Shown one piece after another: positions 1,597-20,524 of a DNA stretch of 20,524 nt. The DNA lies in the NCBI GenBank assembly GCA_964632315.1, contig CAZWEM010000060.1, forward strand, positions 1 through 20,524, written 5' to 3'. Each line of letters begins with the position of its first letter. The stretch's first letter is position 1. The translations under genes were made by a program, and so were the position numbers. Under the pieces are notes generated by a model. The model had not been told where the DNA came from, did no database searches, and worked only from the letters and a program-made list of their open reading frames with translations. The DNA comes from an uncultured archaeon. Its GTDB lineage: Archaea; Asgardarchaeota; Lokiarchaeia; Sigyniarchaeales; SOKP01.

Positions 1597-1715
1597 TAAG
1601 AGAACCTATTTATCGTGAAGTTTAAAATTTAATTCTAACTTTAATATTCATAATAAACCTATTGTATTAAATGATATTGCTATTATCTTAATTATTATAA
1701 TGGTTGTCTAGTCAG

Positions 1716-2390: not shown

Positions 2391-2395
2391 CTATA

Positions 2396-3070
2396 ATGAA
2401 AATTGAGAATATTAGTATAAATCCCACGAAAATAATATGCCTTGGAAGAAATTACGTAGATCATATAAAGGAAATGAATGCTCCTTTTCCTAAAGAACCC
2501 GTATTTTTTGGCAAAACCATAAACACGCTAATAACAGATAATAAACCAATAATATATCCAAAGATATTATATAAAGATGAAGTGAATAAAAGGGTAGATT
2601 ATGAAGTTGAATTAGCCTTTATAATTTCCAAGAATTGCAAAAATGTAAGTAAACAGAATGCTTACGACTTTATTTTTGGCTATTCTGTATTTTTAGATAT
2701 GACTGCTAGAAATATGCAAGTAAATGATAGGAACATAAAACTTCCTTGGTATCGTTCTAAAAATTTTGATACATTTGGTCCAATAGGCCCTAAAATTGTT
2801 TCTCATGATGAGATATCAGATCCTCATAATTTAAATATTGAGTTAAAGGTTAACGGAGAAATTCGTCAATCTTCAAATACTAAATATTTGCTTTTCAAAA
2901 TACCAGATATTATTGAATATATTAGTCAATTTTTAACTTTAGAGGAAGGAGACATTGTTGCTACAGGCACTCCAGGAGGAGTGGGAGCAATTCTTCCAGG
3001 GGATAAGATTGAGGCATCGATTGAGATGATTGGGACGATAACTCACTTGATAGTTATGGAAGGTGCTTAA
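2396..3070 (+). CDS. Fumarylacetoacetate hydrolase family protein (FAHD-like), paralogue 2
   Basis: KIICLGRNYxxH, DYEVEL, DMTAR, KNFDTFGPIGP, GDIVATGTPGG; starts 5 nt after paralogue 1. Confidence 0.93.
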   Translation: MKIENISINPTKIICLGRNYVDHIKEMNAPFPKEPVFFGKTINTLITDNKPIIYPKILYKDEVNKRVDYEVELAFIISKNCKNVSKQNAYDFIFGYSVFLDMTARNMQVNDRNIKLPWYRSKNFDTFGPIGPKIVSHDEISDPHNLNIELKVNGEIRQSSNTKYLLFKIPDIIEYISQFLTLEEGDIVATGTPGGVGAILPGDKIEASIEMIGTITHLIVMEGA

Positions 3071-3206
3071 AACTAAATTCTTCCCTCTTATTTTTTTCCA
3101 TTAAAATATTTTGCTAGTGTGGCAAACTTAGAATAAATTTGCATTGAAGTTCTTTATAATATTTGATAAGTGAAATGTTTTTTATGGTAAATTATATATC
3201 TTTAAT

Positions 3207-3407
3207 ATGGATCAACAAATATCTGCTGAAATGAAAGCGGAAATCTATAATCTAATGTCCACTCCCGGTGTTGAAGTTAACGATGTTTTAACCACAATAA
3301 ACAATAAGTTTGGATCAAAATTGGATTATGATACTCTCATGGAATTCTTATCGGATGAATATTACAGATGCAATTTTGATCATGGACGCAGGTTATGTTG
3401 CAGATAA
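3207..3407 (+). CDS. Small hypothetical protein (66 aa), possibly helical/HTH-like, with a Cys-containing C-terminus
   Basis: ATG-started ORF with protein-like composition in otherwise very AT-rich intergenic DNA; TATA-like tracts upstream; ends RCNFDHGRRLCCR. Confidence 0.6.
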   Translation: MDQQISAEMKAEIYNLMSTPGVEVNDVLTTINNKFGSKLDYDTLMEFLSDEYYRCNFDHGRRLCCR

Positions 3408-3599: not shown

Positions 3600-6554
3600 T
3601 TAGAAATTATTCATAAAGATTTTATACAGACAATTTATAAGACTGATCTTCAGATAGACATTTTTGAAATATATCATTGCTTTTTCATATTGTCCCTCAG
3701 AGACTTTTAACAATGCTTTGTCAAAATTTTTCACAGCTTTAATAACAAACCTGTTGTTTTCACCCACCAAGCCAATTGCTACTTTAATTGCTGCCTCAAC
3801 CAGCTCCTGAACCATATTAATTGTATTTTTGATATTCGATTGAACATTTGCTCCATCATCTTGAGCATCCATTAGATGTATTATTGCTTTATGGATTTTC
3901 AGCAATCCGAGATAGAATCTGTCTTCATTGAATTGATCTAAAGCTTTTTGTAAAGCTATAAGCGCTTTATTTACATCTTTTTGAGCATGATGAGGAACAT
4001 CAAGAGTCTGAAGATCTTGAATTATTTTTTCTGTAATTGCTGACGGAGATTTGTCAATTTCAAAAACAACGACTAATACCGGTTCGATATTTCCTGCGAT
4101 ATCGCTACTTCTAAAGTAAAATTCATAGTTTCCACTTTCAATAAGGAGTAGAGGATCAGTATAATCGTTCCAAGTGGACCCATCAATACTATATTCAATG
4201 TTATCCACTCCAGAATCAGCATCAAATGCATTTAATTCTAACATCACGTCAGAAATATACCAATCTCCCGTTCCTTGGGCACCTGTGATTACACATGTAG
4301 TTTCGGGATGGATTGTATCAATTTTTACTTCCGCAATTTGTGGATTATCATAATTCCCTGCATTATCTGCAGAACCATAACCAAATATTTTTGACTCTAT
4401 TAATGTAAATGGTCCAGTATACGGAATAGTTGTTATAAGATCAAAACTATATCCTGAACCTGCCACACCAGAGTTATCATCGGTTGCTACTAAAGTCACG
4501 AGAACTTCTGAGGTAAACCAACCGTTCAATCCTTCTTCTCCAGAAATAATCGCTTGAGTAACTGGTGGAATCTTATCAATTAATATATCTACACTGTTTG
4601 GTATTTCATAGTTCCCATTATAATCTACTGATGCATAATAAAGTGTCTTTGATTCGGTTATTAAGATTTCCTCTGTATATAAAGTCCAATTAACGCCATC
4701 AAAACTGAATCCGATCATATATACACCAGAAAGATCATCATATGCATCCAATGTCACGAGAACATCTGATTGAAACCACCCATTCCAACCCCAAACACCA
4801 TCGAGATTAGAAATGTAGGTCACTGGAGGAGTCGTGTCAACTTCTTCATGAGAAACTCCGGTAACTCCAAGGAAATTTAGCTTTCTCATTGAGTTCATTT
4901 GAAATCCCTGAATTTCACTATTGTACCATATATGATTCATAGGAACATATCCAAATGCATATGGAAAATCCTCTTCTACAAGTAATTGTTGAATTCGAGA
5001 ATAATACTGTACTCGTAAACTATGATCTGTTTCTATTAGTGCGGCTTCCATTAGTAATTGGACATTATCTTCTAAAATGTAAGGATTTCTTCCTGCTTCT
5101 ACGGCAGCGTTAAAACCATTATACCGTGCTAAAGTTGAGGTCCTATTTGTATAAAGATTATTTATGTAATCACTTGGATCGTTATAATCTGCAGCCCATC
5201 CGAGCCAATATAGCTGTAGCATATCTCGATTATAAGGTTCATAGTCTTGAAACTTAGATTCGAATTCCCAATACTCCACAGCAGCCTCTTGAACATCAAT
5301 TCCAATTTTCCCTAAATTATCTACTAAGAGATAATAAATATCCTCTCGAATTTGACTACCAATATTATAAGTGTAGTTTAGACTCAGAAAAGTGGAAGCT
5401 TCCCAAACACTGTCATCATATAAATTTAATCCAGCTCCTAATCCCATGCTTTGCATTACTGTTCTTGCATGAATAATATCTGTTGTTGGTACATTGAAGC
5501 TATCATCAGAAAAGGCAATACCATTTGGAATAGGTGATTTTAATCGGGTACATTCTCCACCATAAATATCATTCATCAGATATTCATAATCAATGGCATA
5601 ACTAATTGCTTCCCTAAGATCTCTATCAATAAAATGATTATTCATGACAATAAACATTGTCATGGTGCTTCCAATTGAATCTAATACATAAGCAGGGTCT
5701 CCCTCAAATTCTCCTCTTCTAAAGGTGGGAGGATCTAAAATCATATGTAGCTCTCCAGAAGCTAGAAGATCAGCTTGTTCATTCCCATCATAGATATATT
5801 TGAATAGTAAGTGGTCAATCTCAGGCCTTCCATTCCAATAATTATCGAATGCACTAAAACTTGTTACCATACCATCGTAGTATTCAAATACAAAAGGTCC
5901 TGTTCCTATTATTGGCCCTGAATATACATCAATTATGTCCTCTAGTGGAGTAGATGTTGGTGATAAAATAAACGATGATTCAAACGCTAATAATGTTTCA
6001 AATAAACCATATTGAATATTTAATTCAAATTCTACCAAATATTCACTTACAACATTAACAGCATTTATAATTGGTATCATTTCATCAGTCAAGTAGTCAT
6101 AATATTTATATAAATTCTCAGTTAATAGCATTCCATTATCCATAAAATACTGGAGTCTGTCAAATGTAAATTTAACGGCATATGCATCAAAATGGGTCTC
6201 ATCATGAAATTCAACATCTTGTCTTAATTCAACTGTGTAAAGATTTCCATTCCATGTACCATGGTCTACAGCAAGTTGTGGAACTATTGCTAAATTTGGA
6301 TCAGAATAATCAAATCCAAATAACCCTTCAGCAATTTGATCAATTACATCGAAAGACCCTAATCTATACGTATAAAGTGGATCAAGGTCAGTAAATCCAG
6401 ATGCGGTTCCAACGAATAGGACATTTTCATTTTGAGACAACTTAAGATTTTTTTCATTAATTTTAAGCTCTCTTGGTTGATAAACAAATGCCACTAAAAC
6501 TGTCAAAGCTAAAATTGTTGATACAAGTTTTATTTTTCTATTTTTGATAATAAT
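3600..6554 (-). CDS. Family-5 (oligopeptide/nickel-type) ABC solute-binding protein fused to three Ig-like repeats and a C-terminal helical domain
   Basis: LDP..., IAEGLF, PQLA, LRQDVEFHDETHFDAYAVKFTFDR, IGTGPF, LREAISYAID, LGWAADYNDP are SBP_bac_5 motifs; three DxxPPxT...GWF repeats follow. The track starts at TTG 6506, but the frame is open to 6554 and adds a signal-peptide n-region (see findings). Confidence 0.88.
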   Translation of the reverse strand: MIIKNRKIKLVSTILALTVLVAFVYQPRELKINEKNLKLSQNENVLFVGTASGFTDLDPLYTYRLGSFDVIDQIAEGLFGFDYSDPNLAIVPQLAVDHGTWNGNLYTVELRQDVEFHDETHFDAYAVKFTFDRLQYFMDNGMLLTENLYKYYDYLTDEMIPIINAVNVVSEYLVEFELNIQYGLFETLLAFESSFILSPTSTPLEDIIDVYSGPIIGTGPFVFEYYDGMVTSFSAFDNYWNGRPEIDHLLFKYIYDGNEQADLLASGELHMILDPPTFRRGEFEGDPAYVLDSIGSTMTMFIVMNNHFIDRDLREAISYAIDYEYLMNDIYGGECTRLKSPIPNGIAFSDDSFNVPTTDIIHARTVMQSMGLGAGLNLYDDSVWEASTFLSLNYTYNIGSQIREDIYYLLVDNLGKIGIDVQEAAVEYWEFESKFQDYEPYNRDMLQLYWLGWAADYNDPSDYINNLYTNRTSTLARYNGFNAAVEAGRNPYILEDNVQLLMEAALIETDHSLRVQYYSRIQQLLVEEDFPYAFGYVPMNHIWYNSEIQGFQMNSMRKLNFLGVTGVSHEEVDTTPPVTYISNLDGVWGWNGWFQSDVLVTLDAYDDLSGVYMIGFSFDGVNWTLYTEEILITESKTLYYASVDYNGNYEIPNSVDILIDKIPPVTQAIISGEEGLNGWFTSEVLVTLVATDDNSGVAGSGYSFDLITTIPYTGPFTLIESKIFGYGSADNAGNYDNPQIAEVKIDTIHPETTCVITGAQGTGDWYISDVMLELNAFDADSGVDNIEYSIDGSTWNDYTDPLLLIESGNYEFYFRSSDIAGNIEPVLVVVFEIDKSPSAITEKIIQDLQTLDVPHHAQKDVNKALIALQKALDQFNEDRFYLGLLKIHKAIIHLMDAQDDGANVQSNIKNTINMVQELVEAAIKVAIGLVGENNRFVIKAVKNFDKALLKVSEGQYEKAMIYFKNVYLKISLINCLYKIFMNNF
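4050..4838 (-). repeat. Three tandem ~86-aa Ig-like beta-sandwich repeats inside the SBP gene
   Basis: DTTPPVT..GWNGWFQSDVLVTLDAYDDLSGV / DKIPPVT..GLNGWFTSEVLVTLVATDDNSGV / DTIHPET..GTGDWYISDVMLELNAFDADSGV. The DNA 11-mer gtcacgagaac recurs at 4495 and 4753 (258 nt apart). Boundaries approximate. Confidence 0.85.
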
Positions 6555-7487: not shown

Positions 7488-8216
7488 ATGAAAGTAGATG
7501 ATAGATTACTTAAGAAGTCCTTAGATGCTACACTCAAACGCTCAGTAATTAAAAAAGAGGGTTTCAAGGATAAAACTCGAAATTTTGATGAAAGTATTGA
7601 TTTCATTATCAATTTTAAGGATATCAATTTAAATGATCCAAAACAGAGGATTGATAAGGAAATCATTTTGCCTAATGAAGTAATCACCTCTAAGTTACCA
7701 AATGTTTGCGTTATTGCGTCTGATGAAATACTATTACAAGCTAAAAATATGGGATTAGAGACTATTGATGGTGATGAATTAGTAAAAATAAATAATGAAG
7801 AAAAAAAGTATAAGAAAAAATTAGCGAAGAAATACGACTATTTCATTGTTGAAGATAAAATGATGCCTAACGTGGCAAGATACTTGGCTCGATTTTTAGG
7901 TCCGATAGGAAGGATGCCTAAACCATTTCCTAGTGGTTATGGGATTATCTCAAATCCAGATGAATTACAGACAGCAGTTGAGCGATATCTAAAGATTATT
8001 CGAATTCAATTGAAAAAACAACCTATTGTTCAAGTGAAAATAGGTAAAAGGTCAATGGATAAAGACAAGATATTCGAGAATTTAAAAACCGTTGTCGATT
8101 ATGTTGCTGATCAGATGCCGCATAAATATAATAACATAAAATCGATGTTTCTGAAGACTACAATGGGCCGTCCAGTAAAAATTGATGAGCAATTTTTAAA
8201 AGCAATAGAGGTGTGA
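7488..8216 (+). CDS. rpl1: 50S ribosomal protein L1 (uL1), archaeal type
   Basis: RNFDESIDFIINFKDI, LGPIGRMPKP, NIKSMFLKTTMGRPVK; follows rpl11. Confidence 0.96.
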   Translation: MKVDDRLLKKSLDATLKRSVIKKEGFKDKTRNFDESIDFIINFKDINLNDPKQRIDKEIILPNEVITSKLPNVCVIASDEILLQAKNMGLETIDGDELVKINNEEKKYKKKLAKKYDYFIVEDKMMPNVARYLARFLGPIGRMPKPFPSGYGIISNPDELQTAVERYLKIIRIQLKKQPIVQVKIGKRSMDKDKIFENLKTVVDYVADQMPHKYNNIKSMFLKTTMGRPVKIDEQFLKAIEV

Positions 8217-8220
8217 GTGA

Positions 8221-9192
8221 ATGATTGGAAAAAAACATATTCCACAATGGAAATTGGATGAAGTGAAAGAATTAATTGAGCTATTTAATCAGTTTGACAG
8301 TGTTGCTGTAATTCAAGTCTCTAAAATGAGCGATAAACAAGTTCAAGGAATCAGAAAAACATTGCGTGGAGATGCAGTTATTAAAATGTCAAAGAAAAAC
8401 TTGCAATTAAGGGCTATTGAGCAAGTTATAAAAGATACCAACAAGGAAAACTTAGATAAATTAGCAAAAAACATTTCAGGACAATCAGCATTATGTTTTA
8501 CCAACAAGAATATATTTGATTTACGAAGAGTATTTAATGAAAATCTTTGGATGGTACCAGCAAAACCAGATGAAGAAACTCCTGTAGATATTTGGGTACC
8601 AGAAGGAGATACAGGATTACCCACTGGACAAGTAATAAGTGAGTTAAACATGACTCTTCGTTTACCAACGCGCATTCAAAATGACACCATCTGGGTTCGC
8701 GAAGCTACAAGAACTCACAAAGCTGGTGATTTTGTTGATGTAAAGCAGGCAGCAGTATTAAAAAAGTTAGGAGTAACTCCAATTGAATCTTTAATTAAAA
8801 TCCAATATGCTTGGAGTAATGGGGAGATTTACACTCCAGAGATAATTTACATGGATATTAAAGTCTTCAAGCAAAATATTACTACTGCATTTAATACTGC
8901 TAAGCAAATTGCGATCCAGTTTGGAATAATAGATGAATTAACAATCGAACCGTTAATTCAAAAAGCCCGTAGGGAAGCACTTGGTATTGCTTTTGAAATT
9001 CCTGTTTATATTGATGGATTAAGGGACGATTACATTCGGAAGGCGGTAACAAACGGTAATGCCTTAAATGCGATAGTTTTTGGAGGTAGTAAGCCTGTTG
9101 AAACCAGTGAAAAACCTACTATCTTGGATCACAAGAAAGAGGATGAAGATGAGGAGGAAGAAGAAGTTGGAATTGGAGGTCTTTTTGGATAA
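8221..9192 (+). CDS. rplP0: 50S ribosomal protein L10/P0 (uL10)
   Basis: IPQWKLDEV, IRKTLRG, insertion domain GDTGLPTG, acidic tail ending EEEEVGIGGLFG. Confidence 0.96.
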   Translation: MIGKKHIPQWKLDEVKELIELFNQFDSVAVIQVSKMSDKQVQGIRKTLRGDAVIKMSKKNLQLRAIEQVIKDTNKENLDKLAKNISGQSALCFTNKNIFDLRRVFNENLWMVPAKPDEETPVDIWVPEGDTGLPTGQVISELNMTLRLPTRIQNDTIWVREATRTHKAGDFVDVKQAAVLKKLGVTPIESLIKIQYAWSNGEIYTPEIIYMDIKVFKQNITTAFNTAKQIAIQFGIIDELTIEPLIQKARREALGIAFEIPVYIDGLRDDYIRKAVTNGNALNAIVFGGSKPVETSEKPTILDHKKEDEDEEEEEVGIGGLFG

Positions 9193-9262
9193 TTAAAATA
9201 AATTTTTTAATAATATATGAAAAAATAAAAGCATAAAATAGAATAAAAAGAGGAAAATTATA

Positions 9263-9562
9263 ATGGAAAGCATATATGCTGCATTACTTCTGCATAAAGC
9301 GGGTAAAAAAATAACTGAGGATGCAGTTGATAAAGTACTAAAAGCTGCTGGAGCTAAAGTAGACAGTTCAGATATCACCAAGCTAATTGCTGGTTTAAAG
9401 GAAGCAGATATTGATGAAATCATAAGTTCTGCTGCTGCAGCTCCTGTTATGGCAGCTTCAGTTTCAAGTGCACCTGCAGTTGCAGAAGTTAAAGAAGAAA
9501 AAAAGGAAAAAGAAGAAGAGGAAGAAGAAGAGGAACCAACTGGCATCGGAAGTCTCTTTTAA
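9263..9562 (+). CDS. rpl12: Ribosomal stalk protein P1 (archaeal L12)
   Basis: MESIYAALLLHKAGKKITE, Ala-rich hinge, Glu-rich tail, GIGSLF. Confidence 0.96.
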   Translation: MESIYAALLLHKAGKKITEDAVDKVLKAAGAKVDSSDITKLIAGLKEADIDEIISSAAAAPVMAASVSSAPAVAEVKEEKKEKEEEEEEEEPTGIGSLF

Positions 9563-9650
9563 TCTCCAAACTTAAAAAGATTGGAGATACTGTCTAATTC
9601 TTCAATTATATATTACACTAACGTGTAATTTCTTTTTGTTTTTTTATTTT
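9562..9650 (+). terminator. Hairpin plus T-tracts after rpl12 (probable terminator or processing site)
   Basis: atctccaa (9562-9569) pairs with ttggagat (9581-9588); T-rich tract tctttttgtttttttattttt at 9631-9650. Confidence 0.5.
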
Positions 9651-9757: not shown

Positions 9758-11209
9758 ATGGCAAGCCGTTTCTTGAAATTCTTTAGCCCATTCGTCCGGA
9801 TAATGCCTGAAATCAAACAACCGCAAAGGGAAGTACAATTTAGAGAAAAATTGATCTGGACAGTGGTTGTGTTGATCATTTATCTCATCATGTCTAATGT
9901 ACCGTTATATGGAGTTACCGTACAAGATACAGTAGACTATTACTATTGGCTGAGGGTAATACTAGCAAGTCAACGAGGAACTTTAACGGAATTAGGGATT
10001 GGTCCGATTGTCACTGCCGGTCTTATCATGCAATTATTACTTGGTTCAAAAATCATCAAGGTTGATATGAGAGATCCTTATGATCGAGCAATGTTCAGTG
10101 GTTCTCAAAAAGTTCTAGCGATGATGCTTACCGTATTTAATGGCATCGCTTATATTGCAGGAGGAGCCTTCGGACAACTTAGCATTATGAATGCTACATT
10201 AGTCTTCTTCCAAATACTTTTTGCAGGATTAGTAATCATATTATTAGATGAACTATTGCAAAAAGGATGGGGTATAGGGAGTGGTGTTTCATTATTTATA
10301 GCTGCTGGTGTTGCAGGTCAGATTTTTTGGAATACATTCAGCTTCATTGAAACTGACCAAACAGGGGCGCGAGGAGTTTTGATTGCCTTCATTCAATCCT
10401 TTACTGATCCTAGTATAAATACCATGGATTTATTTCTCAGAACAAGTCAGCCCAACATTTTGGGTGGAATCACGACAATAATAATCTTTGTCATCGTGAT
10501 CTGGTTTGAATCCACAAGAATAGAGATACCATTGGCGTATAAAGGTCATAGGGGGTTTACGGGAAAATATCCAATGAAGCTATTATATGTATCAAACATT
10601 CCAGTAATATTAGTAAATGCATTGTATGCAAACTTCTTGTTTTTTGGGCAGCTATTGGCCGGCCCAGACTCCGCATTACGACAAATACCAGGTTGGGATT
10701 TTTGGTTAGATTTAATAGGAAAGTTTGAAGCTCCAGCTCAACATGCTGCTCAAGGAAATTATTTAATACCTATAAAGGGAATTCTATATTATCTCACTCC
10801 ACCCCAAGGAATAACAGGTTTAATAGCAGACCCCGGAAAGGCCGTAATTTATTTGGTCATATTCATCTTTCTTTGTGTGATGCTCGGCCGTCTATGGGTT
10901 GAGGTTTCTGGACTTGCCCCACGAGACATAGCACAGCAAATTCTTGATTCTGGTATGCAAGTTCCGGGATTTAGAAGTTCAGAAAGGATTATTGAACGCA
11001 TACTTAAGCGATATATCCCAACTCTCGTGATTCTTAATGGTATGATTATAGCGGTTCTGAGTTTCTTTGCTGATAGTCTTGGTGCACTGACTTCAGGTAC
11101 AGGACTCCTCATCTCAATTGGGATAATCCATCAATATGCGGAATCTTTGAGTAAGGAGATGGCGGCGAGTCAATATCCTGGCATGCGTGGATTGCTTGGA
11201 TTGGATTAA
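9758..11209 (+). CDS. secY: Preprotein translocase subunit SecY/Sec61-alpha
   Basis: EKLIWT, GTLTELGIGPIVTAGLIMQLL, DELLQKGWGIGSGVSLFIA, KLLYVSNIPVIL, VPGFR, GTGLL; about 10 TM segments. Confidence 0.98.
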   Translation: MASRFLKFFSPFVRIMPEIKQPQREVQFREKLIWTVVVLIIYLIMSNVPLYGVTVQDTVDYYYWLRVILASQRGTLTELGIGPIVTAGLIMQLLLGSKIIKVDMRDPYDRAMFSGSQKVLAMMLTVFNGIAYIAGGAFGQLSIMNATLVFFQILFAGLVIILLDELLQKGWGIGSGVSLFIAAGVAGQIFWNTFSFIETDQTGARGVLIAFIQSFTDPSINTMDLFLRTSQPNILGGITTIIIFVIVIWFESTRIEIPLAYKGHRGFTGKYPMKLLYVSNIPVILVNALYANFLFFGQLLAGPDSALRQIPGWDFWLDLIGKFEAPAQHAAQGNYLIPIKGILYYLTPPQGITGLIADPGKAVIYLVIFIFLCVMLGRLWVEVSGLAPRDIAQQILDSGMQVPGFRSSERIIERILKRYIPTLVILNGMIIAVLSFFADSLGALTSGTGLLISIGIIHQYAESLSKEMAASQYPGMRGLLGLD

Positions 11210-11279: not shown

Positions 11280-11951
11280 ATGTTTTTTACTTTATTTCAA
11301 ACCAATCCCTTTTTAGAATGGATGAGTTATCCTCCAGGTTCAATGTTTTTTATATTGTTACTCTCGGTGGGTACAGCACTGCTTAGTGCTGGTTTAACAA
11401 AATGGTTAGTGGATACTGACGCACTCAATAGAAAACAAGTAGCAATCAAAGCACATGAAGAAGAGAAAGAAAAGATAATAGAACTTGCTGAAAAAGATGT
11501 AGAAAAATATAGAAAAGCTCGAAAGCAATGGGAACGAAAAAATGAGATGTTTAAGCAATCTCAACAAAGAATGTCTTTACAAAGGTTAAAACCCTCTTGT
11601 ATCACTTTTTTGCCAATGCTTATTATATTTGGTGTGGTGAGGGGGATTTTTTTAAACAATCCAATTGCATTATCACCCATGAATGCTAATGACGTTCCTC
11701 TTATCGGAGGAATGCTTGCAGCATATACTGGAGGAAACATATATCCATGGACAGAACTTGTATATGGTATGACAAGAACGATTCCAGCTACAGCAGGATG
11801 GATTAATTTCACAGCATGGTATTTTTTATGCAGCTTTGGGATAAACACGCTTGTTCAACGCTTCTTTGGAATGCAGAGTCAGGCCTATGGAGGAATGAAT
11901 CAATTAATGGGAGGCGGAAGGGCAAAAGCACTAGAATTTCCAGATGTTTGA
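11280..11951 (+). CDS. EMC3/TMCO1/Get1 (Oxa1 superfamily, DUF106) membrane insertase
   Basis: TM1, charged coiled coil, LKPSCITFLPMLIIF (TM2), WYFLCSF (TM3 signature); canonical position downstream of secY. Confidence 0.88.
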   Translation: MFFTLFQTNPFLEWMSYPPGSMFFILLLSVGTALLSAGLTKWLVDTDALNRKQVAIKAHEEEKEKIIELAEKDVEKYRKARKQWERKNEMFKQSQQRMSLQRLKPSCITFLPMLIIFGVVRGIFLNNPIALSPMNANDVPLIGGMLAAYTGGNIYPWTELVYGMTRTIPATAGWINFTAWYFLCSFGINTLVQRFFGMQSQAYGGMNQLMGGGRAKALEFPDV

Positions 11952-11981: not shown

Positions 11982-12362
11982 TTAATTATGATGGTGGCTT
12001 GAATTACCTCCACAACTCGCAGCATTTAGCGGAGTAAGTTTTCCATTTATGAACAATTCGATATTTTCTTTTACGCTTTTACCGATTTCACCTTGGTTTA
12101 ATGAAATACCAAATTGTATAAATCCCATATATGGTCGACCACCAATACCTCCCACAATAATATCTGTCACGGATTTATTTTTGAAGTTCATAACCGGTTC
12201 CATACATCCCGAATGCCCTTGATTTTGGAGAGAAAAGACTCTCTCATACGTTAGGTCCTCATTGATTTGGACTCCTAAAAAATAATTACAATGTCCAAAA
12301 TGCTCAGAAATCATATCAGATAATTCTGGACCATTAGAAGGTATACCTATTATTTTTTTCAT
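11982..12362 (-). CDS. NifB/NifX (MTH1175-like) metal-cluster-binding family protein
   Basis: IGIPS, ISEHFGHCNYF, IIVGGIG, C-terminal SCGG..HHH. Confidence 0.85.
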   Translation of the reverse strand: MKKIIGIPSNGPELSDMISEHFGHCNYFLGVQINEDLTYERVFSLQNQGHSGCMEPVMNFKNKSVTDIIVGGIGGRPYMGFIQFGISLNQGEIGKSVKENIELFINGKLTPLNAASCGGNSSHHHN

Positions 12363-12606: not shown

Positions 12607-12879
12607 TTATTTTGTAGGAATAGGAACGAGCTCACTCATTTTTTTGTTTAACTTTGCTTTTTTTATAGCAGATTCTACTGCAGCATGATCGGCCCCTTTT
12701 TTAATATTTATCATATCTTGGGTTGGTACAATGTGATTATAATTCACTCTTCTTCTCCTCACCTTTAATCCATCAATTAAGACATAATTTTTGTCAATCA
12801 CATCGCATACAACACAATAGTATCCGGCTTCTCTTCCCATTGTTTTTACACATACTCTTCCTATATCATAAACACTCAT
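12607..12879 (-). CDS. rpl14e: 50S ribosomal protein L14e (eL14)
   Basis: IGRVCVKTMGREAG..CVV.DVIDKNYVLIDG..VRRRRVN..HI.PT; GGTGA SD at 12892-12888. Confidence 0.95.
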   Translation of the reverse strand: MSVYDIGRVCVKTMGREAGYYCVVCDVIDKNYVLIDGLKVRRRRVNYNHIVPTQDMINIKKGADHAAVESAIKKAKLNKKMSELVPIPTK

Positions 12880-12991: not shown

Positions 12992-13531
12992 TTATGATTT
13001 TTGCAATTTAATTTTTGATAAAATTAGCTTTACCACTTCATTAATTGATAATATTTCGGTGTTGATGATTAAATCATGAATAGATTCAAGGGTTTTAAGA
13101 TCCTTCAAATCAATATCATACAAGCGCTTAAATCGTTGAAACTCTGATTCTTCTCTCACAGTTGTTTCTACATATTTTGTTTTAAAATCTGTATTATCTC
13201 TTTCAGCCATCCTTTTTACTCTAATCTTGATGGGACAAGATAGATATATTTTATAATCAGCTAGATCTTTTAAGATGTGACCGCTCAATTGGCTCTCTAT
13301 AACGATATCTCCTTTTTTAGCGATGTCAATTACTTTTTTATCTAATTTTAGGTCTATTTCTGGATGTTCTTCAGCATATCGCGTAAATTCTTTGAGATCC
13401 ATTTCATATTCTTGTGCTAACTCTCGAAATGCTTGCCCAGTCGAGTAATATTCTAAGTTTAATTCTTTTGAGATAATTTTTCCTATTGTTGATTTTCCCG
13501 TTCCATGTAATCCTGAAATGGTTATAATCAT
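12992..13531 (-). CDS. cmk: Archaeal cytidylate kinase
   Basis: IITISGLHGTGKST P-loop, GQAFRELA, IDLKLD, RFKRLYDID; located between rpl34e and rpl14e as in other archaea. Confidence 0.93.
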   Translation of the reverse strand: MIITISGLHGTGKSTIGKIISKELNLEYYSTGQAFRELAQEYEMDLKEFTRYAEEHPEIDLKLDKKVIDIAKKGDIVIESQLSGHILKDLADYKIYLSCPIKIRVKRMAERDNTDFKTKYVETTVREESEFQRFKRLYDIDLKDLKTLESIHDLIINTEILSINEVVKLILSKIKLQKS

Positions 13532-13606: not shown

Positions 13607-13876
13607 TCAAGAATTCCAAATAGATTCTCTAATTAAATTATGAAGACATCTGGCGCAATATCTGCCACTTTCTAATCTATTAGCTTTACGATGAGTTTTG
13701 TTTGTCTTTTTCATTTTTGCCGGTCTAAGACGAGGAATTGCTTGAAGAGGCCTCTTGCAAATTGAACATTGAGCTTTTTTTGGTTTCTTTCTCCAATAGT
13801 GAGTTGAATTTTGATTTCCGGGTGTAGTTATTGTCTTACGTTTTTGTGCTTTAGATCTTAGTCCAGGTCTTGTCAT
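13607..13876 (-). CDS. rpl34e: 50S ribosomal protein L34e (eL34)
   Basis: RPGLRS, TPG, CSICKRPL and YCARC zinc ligands; highly basic. Confidence 0.94.
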   Translation of the reverse strand: MTRPGLRSKAQKRKTITTPGNQNSTHYWRKKPKKAQCSICKRPLQAIPRLRPAKMKKTNKTHRKANRLESGRYCARCLHNLIRESIWNS

Positions 13877-13958: not shown

Positions 13959-14549
13959 TTATATATCTAATTTACACTGGAATTCTTTATACAACAAATA
14001 GAGCTTATCTCCGATATCATCCCGATATTTATTGTTGTTGATGAGTTTGTCTTCATTCTTAATTATTTCTTTTCTTATAAATGCTAATTCTTCACTGATT
14101 TTTTCTAAACCGGGAAATCTTTGAAAGAGCGAGGTTAATTCATTAAATGACTTATCAATTAGATCCAAGTTCTCAGTTATTCCTAATTTTAATATATCCA
14201 TCAGAGTAATAAGAGATGATGCGATTTCTAATGCCAATCCAGGAAGTTCTAATATTGAAAATCTTGAAAATCCATATTTCGATTCTTGAATTTCAATATT
14301 ATTTAAAATTTCAATCGCATTTTGATACTCATTCATATATTTCATCTCATTTAGTAAATCCGAAAGATTAGAACCTTTTTCTTTTATTTTGAAATTAATT
14401 GCTAAAAGCTCGTTATAAGCGTTCTTAACTGATTTTGCATAAAAAATATCAGATATTAACCCTTTATTGTATTTTGAGTTTAAATTTTCAATGGTTTTAG
14501 TAACTGCAAATATTTCCGATTTAAAGACATTGATTTTTTCATCTTTCAT
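13959..14549 (-). CDS. vps28: Vps28-like ESCRT-I subunit (eukaryotic signature protein)
   Basis: SEIFAVTKTIENLNSKYNKGLISDIFY resembles the Vps28 core hairpin ([27 protein letters not shown]). ALEIASSLITLMDILKLGI resembles the CTD helix (IADVVSLFITVMDKLRLEI) and LYLLYKEFQCKL resembles LESAYNAFNRFL. Comparisons are from memory of the human protein. Confidence 0.78.
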   Translation of the reverse strand: MKDEKINVFKSEIFAVTKTIENLNSKYNKGLISDIFYAKSVKNAYNELLAINFKIKEKGSNLSDLLNEMKYMNEYQNAIEILNNIEIQESKYGFSRFSILELPGLALEIASSLITLMDILKLGITENLDLIDKSFNELTSLFQRFPGLEKISEELAFIRKEIIKNEDKLINNNKYRDDIGDKLYLLYKEFQCKLDI

Positions 14550-14567
14550 TAAAATGCAACTATTTAA

Positions 14568-15464
14568 TTATAAACTAAATACAGGGCGAATAAAAAAGAC
14601 AAAAATTGCGACAACAATCCCTATTGTTAATGAAGCCAGTAAAACACGTAAAGTTGAAGAATTTGATAGCTCGCGAATTGCAAGTGTAATTAAAATAGGG
14701 ACCCAAATTGCAATTGTTAATGCATCTAATGTATAGAGAATCATCCAGATAGGACTATTAAATACTGTTCCAAATAAATCTGGAGTAAGAGTAAAGGGGA
14801 TCTGTGTAGTGGGAAATCCAATAAGAATAATAAGGATTTCTATTAAATATATTATTAAAAATGGAGAAAACGCACAATACATCATTTTGAACTTATGTGA
14901 TTGGGTTTGATTAAGCGTACCTCCCTTATAAATGCTAAACGGACTCATTTCTGCTTCTCTATATGTTTCTTTCTGACTAGTCCCTCCAAATCTAGCTTCT
15001 AACTTCTCAGAAAAGCCAACAGCATAATTTGCTCCCTTTATAAATAACCAAATTAATATAGTACCAAAGAAATAAAAAAAAAACAAACCAAGAAGAAAAA
15101 AGAGTGCAAAAACTGTAAAACTAAAAAAAAATGCAAAATTTGGATATGGAGAGGGAAAATGAGATATTAATGCTAATCCAACTAACCCATACATAAGCGA
15201 GTTGAATAATATTATCAAATGTCCCGGAGCTTTATTCCTTTTATGATTGATATCCCAAAATGCTTTATTTGGACGGATAAATAACCAAAGTATCTTTAGA
15301 TACCATGGTGCGGGATTGATCCATTCTGCCTCGATTCTCTTTAAAAAAAAAATGTTTTCGACAGCTTCTACTTTCAATCTTTTCCCACAAAAAGAACAAA
15401 CATAGCTATCACCACGGTTTTCATTTCCACAGCGAGGACATCTTTGATAAGCTTGAGTTGACAT
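14568..15464 (-). CDS. Zinc-ribbon (C-x2-C-x3-N-x6-C-x2-C) plus Yip1-like multi-pass membrane protein
   Basis: CPRCGNENRGDSYVCSFCG; LFIRPNKAFWDI is the PxxxF amphipathic entry typical of Yip1 domains; about 5 TM segments. Confidence 0.7.
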   Translation of the reverse strand: MSTQAYQRCPRCGNENRGDSYVCSFCGKRLKVEAVENIFFLKRIEAEWINPAPWYLKILWLFIRPNKAFWDINHKRNKAPGHLIILFNSLMYGLVGLALISHFPSPYPNFAFFFSFTVFALFFLLGLFFFYFFGTILIWLFIKGANYAVGFSEKLEARFGGTSQKETYREAEMSPFSIYKGGTLNQTQSHKFKMMYCAFSPFLIIYLIEILIILIGFPTTQIPFTLTPDLFGTVFNSPIWMILYTLDALTIAIWVPILITLAIRELSNSSTLRVLLASLTIGIVVAIFVFFIRPVFSL

Positions 15465-15557: not shown

Positions 15558-16631
15558 TCAGATAGTTTCGATTAGGTAGGTATTATTACTTTTTGAAATA
15601 GTGAATCTTCTTTCATTAAATAAATGAATTAACTCGAGATTCGTTTTAGTATGGTTAGTAATCTCACTTACCTTTATACTTGATTTCCCTTTTGCATATG
15701 CCATTAAAGGAATTAATTGATCACTTAAATAATTGTCAACTGGAATATCATTTTTAATATATTTAATTAATTTTCTTGATGCGTTAAGTCCTAGTTTTTC
15801 GGATGAAGTATTTCTATCTCCTAATAATGTTCCTGTTGATATTCGCGCGCCCGTATCTGAATGAGCATATAAATGTAATCCAACTCCAGAACTATAGGAA
15901 TCTACCCATTCAGTTTGGAGATCTAATTCACATTTTGTTGATTTCAACTCATCTGAGATTACCTTTTTAATCCGTTCAGGAATTCTATTTTTTCCTTTGA
16001 GATTAGAAGTGATAATAATTTCACCTTTAATAGAATTAATATTACCAAGATGATCCAAACTTATTGGAGTAATAGATTTTGCTACTTTAGATACGGAACA
16101 TTGTACTCTAGCTCCGCCTTTAGGGTAAAATCCGTGCCGTTGAACTTTAACATCAATCTTTATTCCCGAAGATTTGAAAATCGGATAAGTCAAATCTATG
16201 AGATAATTAATACTTGGAGCCCATTTACCAAATGTTCCACCTCCAAATAAATTAAGACTTATTTTTTCTGATGATTTTAACCCCAAAGCTGCTATTTGGA
16301 TTGGCTGAAGAAGCAAGCCTAAGCTGGCAGCAGTACTAATATTTACTTCAAGATGCTCTTTATAAAATCCTCCAGATGGAATGAAAGAAATCATTTGGGT
16401 ACCAATTTGGGATTTACTGAGATCACTATTTGTGAGTTCTGTTAAAGTCTTTAAACCTAATAAATGTTGTAGCCTCAATCCTGGTTTAGGTCTATTAGTT
16501 CGGATATTATAAATTTTGATTGGTTGGTTATATAAAAAGGAAAGGCTTGCACCTAATCGAATTATGGAACCGCCTCCTTCGCCCATTGATCCATCTATGT
16601 TTAATATTTCTTTGGTTTGTTTATGCTCCAT
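15558..16631 (-). CDS. rtcA: RNA 3'-terminal phosphate cyclase
   Basis: IDGSMGEGGG.IIR, RPKPGLRLQHL, GFYPKGG, YLSDQLI, and the catalytic His in TNHTKTN. ATG 16631 (short overlap with the upstream stop) is preferred over 16679. Confidence 0.93.
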   Translation of the reverse strand: MEHKQTKEILNIDGSMGEGGGSIIRLGASLSFLYNQPIKIYNIRTNRPKPGLRLQHLLGLKTLTELTNSDLSKSQIGTQMISFIPSGGFYKEHLEVNISTAASLGLLLQPIQIAALGLKSSEKISLNLFGGGTFGKWAPSINYLIDLTYPIFKSSGIKIDVKVQRHGFYPKGGARVQCSVSKVAKSITPISLDHLGNINSIKGEIIITSNLKGKNRIPERIKKVISDELKSTKCELDLQTEWVDSYSSGVGLHLYAHSDTGARISTGTLLGDRNTSSEKLGLNASRKLIKYIKNDIPVDNYLSDQLIPLMAYAKGKSSIKVSEITNHTKTNLELIHLFNERRFTISKSNNTYLIETI

Positions 16632-17772
16632 TTCCTTCTTTTTGTGCTTTATATAATTTTTGGATCCTTTCAATTCCATTATTATTTTCCATAATAACTT
16701 GAACCTCTTTTGGGACTAATCTTCTCCACTCGTTATTATTATCAGCAATCAAATTCCTTACATTTGTTCCGCTGTACTTTTTCTTAAAAATTTCAAGTTT
16801 CTTCCCAATTTTAATTCCTTCTTTTTTAAATAATTCTCGAACCCAATCACTATTGGAATAAATTGTGTCAAATTCACCAGTAATTGACATAACATGGTTA
16901 ACCCATTTTTGAGCATTAAAAATGTCTGGGATGCTAAATATTTCATATCTATTTCGGGAAATCCCTCTTTTATCCAATGCTGCTATAATAAAATTCTTTC
17001 TTTCAATATCAGAGAATGGATCAGATAATTTATTTGAAAGTTGAGAACTCCCAATTCCAATCTTAATACGATCATGCCTCTCAAATAATCTTTTGAATAC
17101 AAATATATGTCCATGGTGTAAGGGTTGGAATCTTCCAATGAATAATGCTACTTTTTTTGAATCTATAGTCGTATTTTGGTCTTCCTCAAGAAACTCCTTC
17201 AAATCCATTTTGATAAGAGTGCTCCAAATTGATTTTGAATAATCGATTGTATCTTTTTCTTTCAGAATAGCTAACAATTCCGATTTGGAATAGAAATGGC
17301 TGAATTTAATATCAAGTTCAGTGGGATCAGGCTTAAGAGAGACGTCAGAATTGATTTCTCCAACAAAAATGTATGAAACTTCATTAATTCCTTCATATTC
17401 TTCTGTCTCTAAGTCATAAAAACGCATCTTCTTAACATATTTTGGCTTGATACCGAATTCTTCTTTCAGTTCGCGTAAAGCATCCTCCTTAATATCTCTT
17501 AATTGTATATTCTTTCTATATAAAACATGTCCAGAAGCAGAGTCAGTATAGTATCCTGGAAATGCTTCTTTTTGAAAACTTCTTTTCTGAACTAGAAAAA
17601 GTGGCTCATTATTTTTCGAAAACGATATTACAAAGAATCTAATTATAAGATGACTAATTTTTCTCTCATGAGCTTTTTTACGCTTCACTGGAAAAATATA
17701 TTTAGAGATTTGACCAGAATGAAGATATTTTATATCAGAGTCTTTAATACATGCGATAATTTCTTGTTCCAT
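16621..17772 (-). CDS. nadM: Fusion of an N-terminal IDI/YfcD-like Nudix domain and a C-terminal archaeal NMN adenylyltransferase (NadM)
   Basis: LVQKRSFQKEAFPG, ASGHV, ALRELKEEFGI (Nudix box); then LFIGRFQPLHHGH, IGIGSSQ, PFS..ER, SGTNVR, W..LVP. Confidence 0.88.
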   Translation of the reverse strand: MEQEIIACIKDSDIKYLHSGQISKYIFPVKRKKAHERKISHLIIRFFVISFSKNNEPLFLVQKRSFQKEAFPGYYTDSASGHVLYRKNIQLRDIKEDALRELKEEFGIKPKYVKKMRFYDLETEEYEGINEVSYIFVGEINSDVSLKPDPTELDIKFSHFYSKSELLAILKEKDTIDYSKSIWSTLIKMDLKEFLEEDQNTTIDSKKVALFIGRFQPLHHGHIFVFKRLFERHDRIKIGIGSSQLSNKLSDPFSDIERKNFIIAALDKRGISRNRYEIFSIPDIFNAQKWVNHVMSITGEFDTIYSNSDWVRELFKKEGIKIGKKLEIFKKKYSGTNVRNLIADNNNEWRRLVPKEVQVIMENNNGIERIQKLYKAQKEGNGA

Positions 17773-18695: not shown

Positions 18696-19598
18696 TCATT
18701 TCTTGTGATATTTTTGATCGATCTTATAAAAGTCTTCGAGTGCTTTTGACTTTAATCGATATTCCTCTTCTTTTTCGAAATCGACTAATTTTTTTGACAA
18801 ATCACTTGCTTTTTTATAAGCAATATATGCGGAATGAAAATCTTCATTTCTAAGGGAACTTCGGGCTTCTTGTACTACCTTATCACGATTTTTTAATAAT
18901 TCGGGAATCATAGTCGAAAAACTAGCTTTTTCCTTTAAGGATTCAGCGATATCAAGTAGATACAACTCTTCCGCTAACTGATAAGCTTTTCCATACAGCT
19001 TTGCTGCTTTTTCATATTCGTTTGTTTTTCTTGCGCCTTCAGCAGAATTATATAATTCACTGATTTTCTTGTAATCGCCCACCTCAACTTTTTTGACCAA
19101 ATCTTGAGCGATCTTTCTCTCCTTTTTACCACCACTCAGCATAAATTTTGTAATATTCAAGATATTTTCTCTTAAAGATTCAGGTTTTAAAATATCAACA
19201 AGTGGCTCCAAATGTTCTAAATATATATCCTTTAAAATTTGTCCAAATTCCTCTTTTAACATATCAAAGATTTCTAAACCCAAAACTTCGATAGCATCTG
19301 CACCTTCTTTTAGCGGGGCTCGAAATTTTTCTGGTTTATCATTTTCATTTAGAAGTAAGCCAATTATTATGCTTGAAGCTTTTCGACTCAACTTACCTGT
19401 AAAACGGTGCAAATAAGAAAATATTTTTTGTTCTTTCAGGTTTAATAGGCTGTAGTCATCTTTTGAGTGATCTAAATTTAGTCTTAAGAATAAATCACTT
19501 GTGATTTTAAAATTTGGTTCACTACCTTTAAAATAATATCCTAGAACTTTATAATCAGCGTCTAATGGTAAAATAATAACAAAACTACCTTTTGGCAT
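18696..19598 (-). CDS. Hypothetical protein with a putative longin/uDENN-like N-terminal domain and two C-terminal TPR/MIT-like helical repeats
   Basis: Residues 1-130 show a beta-beta-alpha-beta-beta-beta-alpha-alpha pattern (MPKGSFVII..YY..H..FSY..IIIGLLL). Repeats AEGARKTNEYEKAAKLYGKAYQLAEEL and ARSSLRNEDFHSAYIAYKKASDLSKKL follow. The CDS is solid; the fold is inferred. Confidence 0.55.
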   Translation of the reverse strand: MPKGSFVIILPLDADYKVLGYYFKGSEPNFKITSDLFLRLNLDHSKDDYSLLNLKEQKIFSYLHRFTGKLSRKASSIIIGLLLNENDKPEKFRAPLKEGADAIEVLGLEIFDMLKEEFGQILKDIYLEHLEPLVDILKPESLRENILNITKFMLSGGKKERKIAQDLVKKVEVGDYKKISELYNSAEGARKTNEYEKAAKLYGKAYQLAEELYLLDIAESLKEKASFSTMIPELLKNRDKVVQEARSSLRNEDFHSAYIAYKKASDLSKKLVDFEKEEEYRLKSKALEDFYKIDQKYHKK

Positions 19599-19605
19599 AT
19601 ATTTC

Positions 19606-20025
19606 CTACTCCTTACAACTTATTATTCTATTAGTTTCCTCTCGGATTGACTGTATAACATTTAATAATTGGGCATAATATAAATTATTGGAGACTGCTT
19701 TTGCTGCTTGTCTTATTATGTCAATTGCTTTCTTTTCCTCCTCTGTTATTGCTTCTATTGATTTTTTCTCGTATAATTCTGCTATCTTTGAATTAAAATC
19801 ATCCGCAATCTCTTGCATACTTTCACTAGATTTCATTCGAAATTGTTTTAACACCTCAACAATCAATCGAATATTCTCATTAATAGAAATGGTTTCTTCT
19901 GAAAATTTTTGAGACATTGCTTGAATTGCAGTACTCATTTGATTTATTTGAGCAATTGTACCATCTAAAGATGTTGTTATTTGATTTATTTTCGTAATCA
20001 TTTCATCTAATAATTTTTCAGCCAT
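19606..20025 (-). CDS. Hypothetical coiled-coil protein A (~139 aa)
   Basis: Continuous heptad pattern, no Pro, no TM segment; start MAEKLL at ATG 20025 (track start 20037). Confidence 0.75.
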   Translation of the reverse strand: MAEKLLDEMITKINQITTSLDGTIAQINQMSTAIQAMSQKFSEETISINENIRLIVEVLKQFRMKSSESMQEIADDFNSKIAELYEKKSIEAITEEEKKAIDIIRQAAKAVSNNLYYAQLLNVIQSIREETNRIISCKE

Positions 20026-20048
20026 ATTTATTCTCAATTCTTCTTTTT

Positions 20049-20453
20049 TTAAATTTTATTTGGAGCTTCCTCTTTAAGGCTATTTACAGAAGTGATTGCT
20101 TCAGAGAGGAGTAAATTAACAGTATCTTGGTTTAAAATCTCACCTGAAAGTTTTTCAAATTCTTCTAATTTCGCAATTAAGGCTTGAATTGCGTCTAAAC
20201 CTAACCCCATTTGAAGTTTTTTTAGTTCATCTTTAGTTCCCTCTCCGATCTCTTTTAATACTTCTATATGACTATTTTTTGTGATATCAATCTCTGCTGT
20301 AAATTCCTCTAATTTTTCATTTAAACTTGTTATTTTTTGTTCTATATTCTGATTTAATCCATCTAAAGAAGTCTTTAAACCTTGAATTGCTTGACCTAAT
20401 TGAGCTATTCTTTTATATATGTTTTGTAGTAAATCTGTAAGCATTTCTGCCAA
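20049..20453 (-). CDS. Hypothetical coiled-coil protein B (~134 aa), apparent distant paralogue of A
   Basis: Heptad pattern; AGGGTG SD-like motif 6 nt before TTG 20453, giving MAEMLTDLL (track start 20462). Confidence 0.75.
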   Translation of the reverse strand: MAEMLTDLLQNIYKRIAQLGQAIQGLKTSLDGLNQNIEQKITSLNEKLEEFTAEIDITKNSHIEVLKEIGEGTKDELKKLQMGLGLDAIQALIAKLEEFEKLSGEILNQDTVNLLLSEAITSVNSLKEEAPNKI

Positions 20454-20524
20454 ATTTAACACCCTAAAAATATTTCAATTTAATAATGATTTGTTTTAAA
20501 ATTTAATTATTAATATAACAGAGT

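Follow-up and report, generated by a model that had tools for sequence, protein, structure and literature searches.

A zinc-ribbon Yip1-superfamily protein gene linked to vps28 and to ubiquitin-ESCRT genes in Asgard archaea

Introduction

[quoted passage not shown] The window analyzed here, which is the whole stretch of 20,524 nucleotides (positions 1 to 20,524, forward strand, of contig CAZWEM010000060.1 in GenBank assembly GCA_964632315.1), carries vps28, the gene of an ESCRT-I subunit, directly downstream of a gene for a Yip1-superfamily membrane protein with an N-terminal zinc ribbon (ZnYip). A preliminary description of the locus regarded this protein as a candidate receptor that recruits Vps28 through its finger. 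Our comparison of 301 genomes of the phylum revealed that the ZnYip gene adjoins vps28 in two families and stays near vps28 or other ubiquitin-ESCRT genes in seven more, suggesting that the membrane protein is probably linked in function to the ubiquitin-ESCRT pathway, in a manner that need not involve the finger.

The pair consists of the following features, read in the order ZnYip, then vps28; profile A1 was built from 20 Vps28 orthologs across the order.

14568-15464, minus strand: 298-aa zinc-ribbon and five-transmembrane (TM) Yip1-superfamily protein, ZnYip (Pfam, ortholog annotation, AlphaFold2)
15387-15440, minus strand: CxxC-x10-CxxC zinc ribbon of ZnYip, C9, C12, C23 and C26 (open reading frame (ORF) coordinate arithmetic)
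15225-15464, minus strand: predicted cytosolic N-terminal region of ZnYip, residues 1-80, with the ribbon, an acidic E33/E36 linker and two amphipathic helices
14550-14567, minus strand: 18-nt intergenic spacer, between the TAA stop of the ZnYip gene and the ATG of vps28
13959-14549, minus strand: 196-aa Vps28, ESCRT-I subunit (PF03997, ortholog profile, AlphaFold2 model)
14274-14549, minus strand: N-terminal domain of Vps28, a helical hairpin (core/steadiness box), about residues 1-92 (A1 profile and model)
13962-14255, minus strand: Vps28 C-terminal four-helix bundle, about residues 99-196, with a FITxMDxLkL motif (A1 profile and model)

The two proteins

As the preliminary description had supposed, the 196-aa protein is a Vps28, a genuine two-domain one and an ordinary ortholog. 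Its PF03997 score is marginal for the window sequence alone (25.2 bits with the cut-off at 24.5; E 1.6e-5; residues 11-148 on positions 2-139 of 188), orthologs from other families reaching 42-62 bits. The A1 profile matched nine Vps28 chains in the PDB, which cover the N-terminal domain and the C-terminal domain (CTD) separately. Matches to the former are weak (A1 positions 6-66 with 2f6m_B, 2f66_B and 2p22_B, E 2.5e-3 to 4.3e-3; further 2caz_B, E 0.012, and 6vme_E, E 0.047); those to the CTD comprise 2j9w_A (E 5.2e-5) and 2j9v, 2j9u and 2g3k (about 4e-4 to 5e-4), with the FIT.MD.L.L helix aligned. The AlphaFold2 model, with a predicted local distance difference test (pLDDT) score of 82.3, contains N-terminal helices at residues 2-28, 34-57, 62-69 and 72-84 followed by the C-terminal four-helix bundle. 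Its CTD superimposes on the yeast Vps28 CTD, 2j9u_A, over 91 of 94 residues (Z 11.4, root-mean-square deviation 2.4 Å, 25% identity), a superposition that by Z alone ties with generic helical bundles. Foldseek found no PDB match at E<=0.001 for the whole model, which is two-domain and all-helical, and NCBIfam gave no usable match for either protein of the pair.

The protein resembles the Asgard Vps28 family (asCOG cog.001720; PMC9192718, PMC10936438) in its length of about 200 aa, its N-terminal hairpin and its C-terminal four-helix bundle with FITxMDxLxL; it differs in being fast-evolving and only just over the Pfam cut-off, and in nothing essential. Its rate of evolution within the genus is about double that of its neighbors (mean pairwise distance 0.81, compared with 0.43 for ZnYip and 0.25-0.45 for L14e, L34e and cmk).

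This is the sole stand-alone Vps28 of the 4.45-Mb genome. The one further PF03997 match, on another contig, is a Vps28-C domain that ends a long PCI/E3-UFM1-like multidomain protein. That protein (locus L001, G000 contig C59:9501-12779; ORF 1474-3279, minus strand) is an 801-aa open frame extending past the locus, with PCI/E3-UFM1-ligase-like/DDRGK winged-helix repeats and PF03997 at 25.5 bits over residues 502-593, an architecture already described in a passage of Makarova et al. (2024; PMC10936438). The Snf7/Vps4-Vps25/Vps22 cluster of the genome lies on a separate contig, where none of 13 scanned ORFs matched the Vps28 or Vps23 families, and the ubiquitin-like and E2 genes lie on yet another. 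Beside the second Snf7 gene of the genome (C1:126200-126664, minus strand), the segment G000:C1:125810-126001 (plus strand) falls within a 687-aa open frame that weakly resembles the Vps23 core/steadiness box (18.6 bits, E 0.008) as well as the N-terminus of Vps28 (E 5.5e-4); similar frames of 700-728 aa are present in relatives. The position of vps28 away from the ESCRT-III/Vps4 cluster agrees with Hatano et al. (2022; PMC9192718), in a passage of which Asgard ESCRT-I genes are called “not tightly clustered”. Asgard Vps28 itself is known, and passages of that paper and of Makarova et al. (2024; PMC10936438) indicate that its gene need not be in the ESCRT cluster. For other Asgard proteins, passages of Hatano et al. 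(2022; PMC9192718) report Vps23-Vps28 and Vps28-Vps22 interactions.

By sequence comparison, the 298-aa protein is a member of the Yip1 superfamily. The window protein alone falls below the Pfam cut-offs, both for Yip1 (13.8 bits, E 0.053, cut-off 28.6) and for Zn_Ribbon_1 (23.5 bits, cut-off 25). Many close orthologs (56-76% identity) carry a precomputed PF04893 assignment, under the database names “zinc ribbon domain-containing protein”, “YIP1 family protein” or “hypothetical protein”. Other Asgard families contain homologs of 233-290 aa that the family profile detects (E 1e-21 to 1e-29), 13 of 14 scanned distant homologs exceed the Pfam Yip1 cut-off (34-81 bits), and a protein atlas gives a score of 0.90 to Yip1 clusters. 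Together with five predicted helices, these results bear out the Yip1-like, five-TM identity proposed earlier. The subfamily is narrow: at E<=1e-3, the order-level profile picks out only 95 proteins from 1.84 billion representatives. ZnYip is single copy per genome, and families are monophyletic in its tree. Cases of two matches per genome, considered as paralogs, proved to be two halves of one gene; in f26, one of the families described below, a second, weaker homolog match per genome occurs in some cases.

The AlphaFold2 model of ZnYip (pLDDT 87.3, predicted template modeling score 0.86) places membrane helices at residues 81-100, 108-149, 201-216, 238-267 and 271-292, and hydropathy agrees on five. 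The N-terminal part is modeled as a small beta ribbon (residues 6-28) followed by short helices to residue 74 (34-37, 54-63 and 65-74), and the model shows a disordered loop at residues 160-185 (pLDDT about 50), which carries lysines. Because the first 80 residues contain 14 K/R, the positive-inside rule predicts a cytosolic N-terminus. Orthologs share 57% mean column identity over 18 sequences. Among 50 homologs, conservation peaks at the ribbon, the acidic E33/E36 linker and the R264-T271 turn, that is, at the predicted cytosolic face; residues E33, E36, P65 and F69 are at least 90% conserved in this alignment. Eukaryotic Yip1/YIPF proteins (PF04893) share the five-TM membrane domain, the cytosolic N-terminus (predicted here) and homology to the Yip1 model, whereas the window protein has an N-terminal zinc ribbon and itself scores below the cut-off. 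A Foldseek search of the PDB with the ZnYip model returned nothing at E<=0.001, and a solved structure of a Yip1 protein for comparison was not found. Five homologs carry one in-frame stop (TAA/TGA), namely G249:C12:6216-7082, G137:C11:34823-35554, G302:C15:9767-10498, G058:C32:8497-8913 and G088:C27:4559-4969; these could be sequencing errors, pseudogenes or recoding.

Adjacency within the order

Profile searches found Vps28 in 220 of the 301 sampled genomes and ZnYip in 174. In the family of the window (f1) and the sister family of the same order (f2), both genes were listed in 67 genomes (f1, 24 from the window's genus and 36 from other genera; f2, seven). In all 67, the genes share one contig and one strand, with the ZnYip gene upstream, so that the adjacency, whose conservation across Asgard genomes the preliminary description had proposed as a check, holds throughout these two families where both genes are listed. 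Read by eye, the gap between profile matches is 13-170 nt in 64 genomes and 234, 776 and 1,834 nt in the other three, the longest containing an inserted DEAD-box helicase gene. A tblastn survey of 30 loci found the order RNA 3'-phosphate cyclase (RTC)-ZnYip-Vps28-L34e-cmk-L14e throughout the genus. In the window, the 18-nt spacing given earlier was confirmed by the ORF coordinates and the spacer sequence, and this short gap between co-directional genes suggests that the two are co-transcribed.

Nine f1 genomes remain, two of which are cut by contig ends, three have fragments or weak hits, and four have no stand-alone Vps28. Two Vps28-less f1 genera encode a protein of 193-194 aa in the interval from RTC to the ZnYip gene (L051:1782-2363, plus strand; L053:2812-3396, minus strand). 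Its two copies are 57% identical and combine a pair of hydrophobic segments at the N-terminus with a winged-helix region and, at the C-terminus, a finger resembling Prok-RING_1 (27.1 and 24.5 bits, below the cut-off of 29.1). The possibility that this ORF is a displaced Vps28 was rejected (hhalign probability 0.3); the product is a TM, winged-helix and Prok-RING-like protein.

Linkage outside the order

A looser linkage to Vps28 or to ubiquitin-ESCRT genes was observed in seven further families. In five of them, f16 (two genera), f19, f25, f7 and f26, the ZnYip homolog lies directly beside the E1 gene of an E1-E2-ubiquitin (Ub)-RING operon that adjoins Vps23-Vps28-Vps22. The loci, with Yip1 denoting the ZnYip homolog and LeuRS leucyl-tRNA synthetase, are arranged as follows.

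L039 (G112, f16): LeuRS / Yip1 / E1, E2, Ub, RING / UEV-Vps23, Vps28, small ORF, Vps22
L041 (G069, f19): LeuRS / Yip1 / E1, E2, Ub, RING / UEV-Vps23, Vps28, small ORF, Vps22
L042 (G118, second f16 genus): Vps4, Vps25 / Vps22, small ORF, Vps28, Vps23 ... / E1 / Yip1
L043 (G093, f25): Yip1 / E1, E2 ... RING-Arf-like GTPase ... Snf7 / Vps4, Vps25 ... Vps22, Vps28, Vps23
L048 (G044, f10): Snf7 / Vps4, Vps25 / Yip1
L070, L071 (f26): Vps28, Vps23, Rab-like GTPase / PAP2, Yip1 / E1, Ub
L077, L078 (f7, Odin-like small genomes): Yip1 / E1, E2, Ub, RING / Vps23, Vps28, Vps22 / Vps25, Vps4 / Snf7
L081 (f28): Yip1, UEV-like, Vps28, co-directional, with Yip1 heading the UEV-Vps28 operon

The f7, f28 and f26 loci came from a broader profile of 50 sequences (A3), applied to 18 regions of ±10 kb around Vps28 in families where a narrow profile (A2) had found nothing; as A2 missed the f7, f26 and f28 homologs, its non-matches elsewhere do not amount to absence. 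In f26, the homolog is present in 22 of 22 genomes and Vps28 in 17, and in 14 of these 17 the two are 2.4-4.4 kb apart on one contig. In 11 genomes of f16, a distance of 4.1-5.6 kb on one strand separates them; in six they are on separate contigs. As a control, we counted the other neighbors of the window's pair in 23 Vps28-centered loci outside the order (404 kb). L34e, RTC and NMNAT were each found zero times, and cmk and L14e once each, both 6 kb from Vps28 and on the opposite strand. Within the f25 ubiquitin-ESCRT supercluster, the ORF at L043:5744-6475 (minus strand) encodes a 243-aa fusion of a RING (residues 34-77) and an Arf/Ras-like GTPase.

The finger

The preliminary description had likened the finger to the NZF finger by which yeast Vps36 is bound. 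Residue mapping confirmed its pattern, C-x2-C-x3-N-x6-C-x2-C (C9, C12, N16, C23 and C26), and its position at 15440-15387. All 18 orthologs have the four cysteines, whose conservation in the alignment of 50 sequences is at least 94%, and 20 of the 21 homologs inspected carry the CxxC-x10-CxxC motif. NZF fingers are characterized by a Trp before the first Cys, a conserved Asn and a TF dipeptide for ubiquitin binding. Among the 18 orthologs, position 16 is Asn in 10, Val in four, Ser in three and Thr in one, the residue before C9 is an invariant Arg rather than Trp, and positions 13-14, the TF site, are GN, GA or GT. No match to PF00641 (RanBP/NZF) was reported at E<=0.1; Zn_Ribbon_1, Zn_ribbon_3 and DZR ranked highest, and the C-x2-C-x10-C-x2-C spacing is common to generic zinc ribbons (PF13240). 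These data agree with the caveat that the preliminary description itself had attached (generic-ribbon spacing, no NZF Trp, no TF). Multi-zinc-ribbon proteins that the family profile also matched (P0059, P0061, P0064, P0067, P0072 and P0081) were set aside as generic ribbon arrays with no ESCRT domain.

The Odin-like homolog (233 aa; L077:5642-6343 and L078:5672-6373, both plus strand) has no N-terminal CxxC...CxxC ribbon, and the 30 nt that separate it from the preceding EamA gene leave no room for one. The NZF analogy is therefore not sustained. In the yeast complex of the Vps36 NZF-N with the Vps28 CTD (PDB 2J9U), the finger has the same four-Cys C-x2-C-x10-C-x2-C spacing, and the window's Vps28 CTD resembles that of yeast; the window finger differs in having no Trp and no NZF Pfam match, and in sitting on an integral membrane protein rather than on an ESCRT-II subunit.

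Interpretation of the linkage

A functional link of ZnYip to the ubiquitin-ESCRT pathway is the explanation we favor, at somewhat better than even odds, because the gene stays by vps28 or the ubiquitin operon through at least five local layouts while its other neighbors do not. A more specific version, for which we see about even chances, is that the two genes are a co-transcribed pair acting in one pathway, with ZnYip as a membrane-side adaptor or anchor of the ubiquitin-ESCRT system. In this mechanism, the most economical one, contacts with ESCRT-I and/or the ubiquitylation enzymes would be made through the ribbon, the linker and the short turn on the cytosolic side, and a soluble Vps28-containing complex would thereby be placed on the membrane.

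Several observations weigh against this explanation. The pairing is not obligate, since four f1 genomes (g17-g19, 89-97% complete) keep RTC-ZnYip-L34e and have no stand-alone Vps28 anywhere, their only Vps28-like sequence being the Vps28-C domain of a protein of about 795 aa. In f11, f12 and f23, the homolog is not linked to ESCRT or ubiquitin genes; in f11 it lies near UbiA and DUF6125, in f12 and f23 near Ogg, L23, LSm and a KaiC-like ATPase, and on two long contigs among these families it lies 294 kb and 471 kb from Vps28. With A3, no homolog was found within 10 kb of Vps28 at 13 loci of f5, f9, f13, f17, f18, f20, f29 and f31. Once phylogeny was accounted for, distance matrices of the two proteins over 19 genus loci were not correlated (partial r 0.11, with 302 of 2000 permutations as high), and control pairs in this mirror-tree comparison scored above the Vps28-ZnYip pair. 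As for the finger, its sequence is that of a generic zinc ribbon rather than of an NZF; the Odin-like homolog has no ribbon and yet is encoded in the cluster, which means that the finger is not needed for the association; and bacterial clusters pairing a zinc ribbon with Yip1 (atlas score 0.78, a lead only) come from bacteria that lack ESCRT-I.

The best-surviving alternative, although in our judgment still an unlikely one, is that there is no functional link and the arrangement is inherited synteny, a remnant of an ancestral gene order in which the pair is now embedded in a ribosomal-protein operon. The placement of the pair in the L34e-cmk-L14e operon is consistent with this, as are the loss of linkage in f11, f12 and f23, the loss of Vps28 from a locus that kept the ZnYip gene, and the absence of a co-evolution signal in the mirror-tree comparison. 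However, the linkage survives several independent rearrangements, with layouts that are divergent, convergent or co-directional with E1, or that place the gene with UEV-Vps28, with Vps25 or with Vps28 alone, and the other neighbors in the window do not stay near Vps28 outside the order.

Somewhat less probable still is that ZnYip is a client, namely a membrane substrate or regulator that is ubiquitylated by the neighboring E1-E2-RING enzymes and sorted by ESCRT-I, its gene traveling with the pathway. Outside the order, the commonest direct neighbor is the E1 gene and not Vps28; in the two Vps28-less f1 genera, the TM, winged-helix and Prok-RING-like protein is encoded next to the ZnYip gene; and the disordered loop at residues 160-185, predicted to be cytosolic, carries lysines. 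A single dedicated cargo in the machinery's own cluster across many lineages would be unusual, however, and the conserved parts are a folded ribbon and an acidic linker rather than a lysine-rich degron.

Eukaryotic Yip1 binds Rab GTPases and partners with Yif1, and a Yip1-like role of ZnYip with Rab/Arf-like small GTPases, in bringing them to the membrane or regulating them, related to ESCRT-I only indirectly as two arms of one trafficking-like system, would fit its superfamily, the Ras/Rab-like and Arf-like GTPase genes in f26 clusters and the RING-Arf-like fusion in f25; it is improbable, however, as GTPase gene neighbors are limited to those f25 and f26 loci, none occurs in the window or in the scanned f16, f19, f7 and f28 loci, and in the order to which the window belongs it remains beside Vps28 and not beside a GTPase.

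Returning to the favored functional link, the form that the preliminary description gave it, in which the finger binds the Vps28 CTD as a ubiquitin-independent entry into ESCRT, appears doubtful and is one of several options for a contact. It is weakened because the finger is dispensable in the Odin-like lineage, because E1 is the commonest neighbor elsewhere, and because the genome has ubiquitin-like and E2 genes. The last two points leave ubiquitin independence unsupported, as the homolog stands beside E1 in five other families and the genome of the window has its own ubiquitin-like and E2 genes.

Relation to previously described families

The architecture and neighborhood of ZnYip are those of cog.000455/arCOG02054 in Table S2 of Makarova et al. 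(2024; PMC10936438), to which the window protein is assigned here by description and context only. The 81 rows for this family cover Loki-, Hod-, Hermod-, Wukong-, Odin- and Kariarchaeota. Among rows 1-45, cog.000455 adjoins Vps28 in Lokiarchaeum GC14_75 (7930..8865 and 8928..9584) and in Loki CR_4, and is 3.4 kb upstream of Vps28 in Odin LCB_4. In that table, the family belongs to functional group S and is not flagged as an ESCRT or ubiquitin component. The word “Yip1” is absent from the main texts of Makarova et al. (2024) and Hatano et al. (2022). A passage in one 2023 preprint mentions adjacency of Vps28 and a membrane protein gene for Hodarchaeia, which matches the f26 layout. Proteins with a Yip1 domain count among the eukaryotic signature proteins of Asgard archaea in a passage of PMC13734099 citing Eme et al. 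(2023), the main text of which does not contain “Yip”. Full-text literature searches combining Yip1 with Asgard and ESCRT, or with archaea, ubiquitin and gene cluster, found no proposal, among the papers listed, that such a protein partners with ESCRT.

According to a passage of Makarova et al. (2024; PMC10936438), no orthologs of ESCRT-0 can be identified in Asgard archaea, and by passages of that paper and of Hatano et al. (2022; PMC9192718) these archaea are not known to have ESCRT-0, Bro1/Alix or full Vps36 orthologs. A far-reaching possibility, which we regard as rather remote, is that ZnYip is the missing upstream recruiter, a membrane-embedded analog of ESCRT-0 whose ribbon and linker would dock ESCRT-I (via Vps28) and/or ubiquitin. 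The likeness to ESCRT-0 (Vps27/Hrs-Hse1/STAM) would lie in the proposed role only, that of a membrane-proximal upstream factor bringing ESCRT-I to the membrane. There is no homology, and ZnYip is an integral membrane protein, whereas ESCRT-0 is peripheral and binds lipid and ubiquitin.

Other features of the window

A Pfam scan of 23 ORFs in the window, with a rescan of the hitless ones at E 0.05, identified VPS28 as the sole ESCRT or ubiquitin family, in agreement with the preliminary description. Downstream of vps28 and co-directional with it are three genes assigned by Pfam.

13607-13876, minus strand: L34e
12992-13531, minus strand: cytidylate kinase (cmk)
12607-12879, minus strand: L14e

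These three genes are an order-specific context and stand outside the functional pair. Upstream of the ZnYip gene, Pfam identified RTC and then an NMNAT-Nudix fusion of 383 aa (16621-17772, minus strand), which combines NUDIX (residues 46-166) with a cytidylyltransferase-like, NMNAT-type domain (residues 210-340) and shares 59 nt with the start of the RTC gene. Convergent with the L14e-cmk-L34e-Vps28 strand are SecY (9758-11209, plus strand) and an EMC3/TMCO1-like insertase homolog (11280-11951, plus strand), and an ORF resembling dinitrogenase FeMo-cofactor-binding proteins (11982-12362, minus strand) lies between the EMC3-like gene and that strand. Three successive ORFs of 300, 143 and 137 aa (18696-20462, minus strand) matched no Pfam family at 1e-4, and at E 0.05 gave weak TPR, SepF (E 0.018) and coiled-coil matches only. 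The LeuRS-ZnYip synteny does not reach into the window, as the 968-aa ORF considered for it (3600-6506) is a solute-binding protein instead.

Concluding remarks

The Yip1 family acts in eukaryotic membrane traffic, and Vps28 and ZnYip are both ordinary members of known families. Their persistent coupling is genuine and little noticed, being visible in published supplementary tables yet unannotated there; the main contribution here is that it has been flagged and that the lineages in which the linkage holds and fails have been delimited. In addition, the NZF reading and the ubiquitin-independent reading were found to be unsupported. For the membrane side of Asgard ESCRT-I and ESCRT-II, this conserved integral membrane protein is a concrete candidate, and its soluble N-terminus of about 80 residues would be cheap to test. 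If the recruiter proposal proved true, a trafficking protein of the Yip1 family would have been connected with ESCRT already before the origin of eukaryotes.

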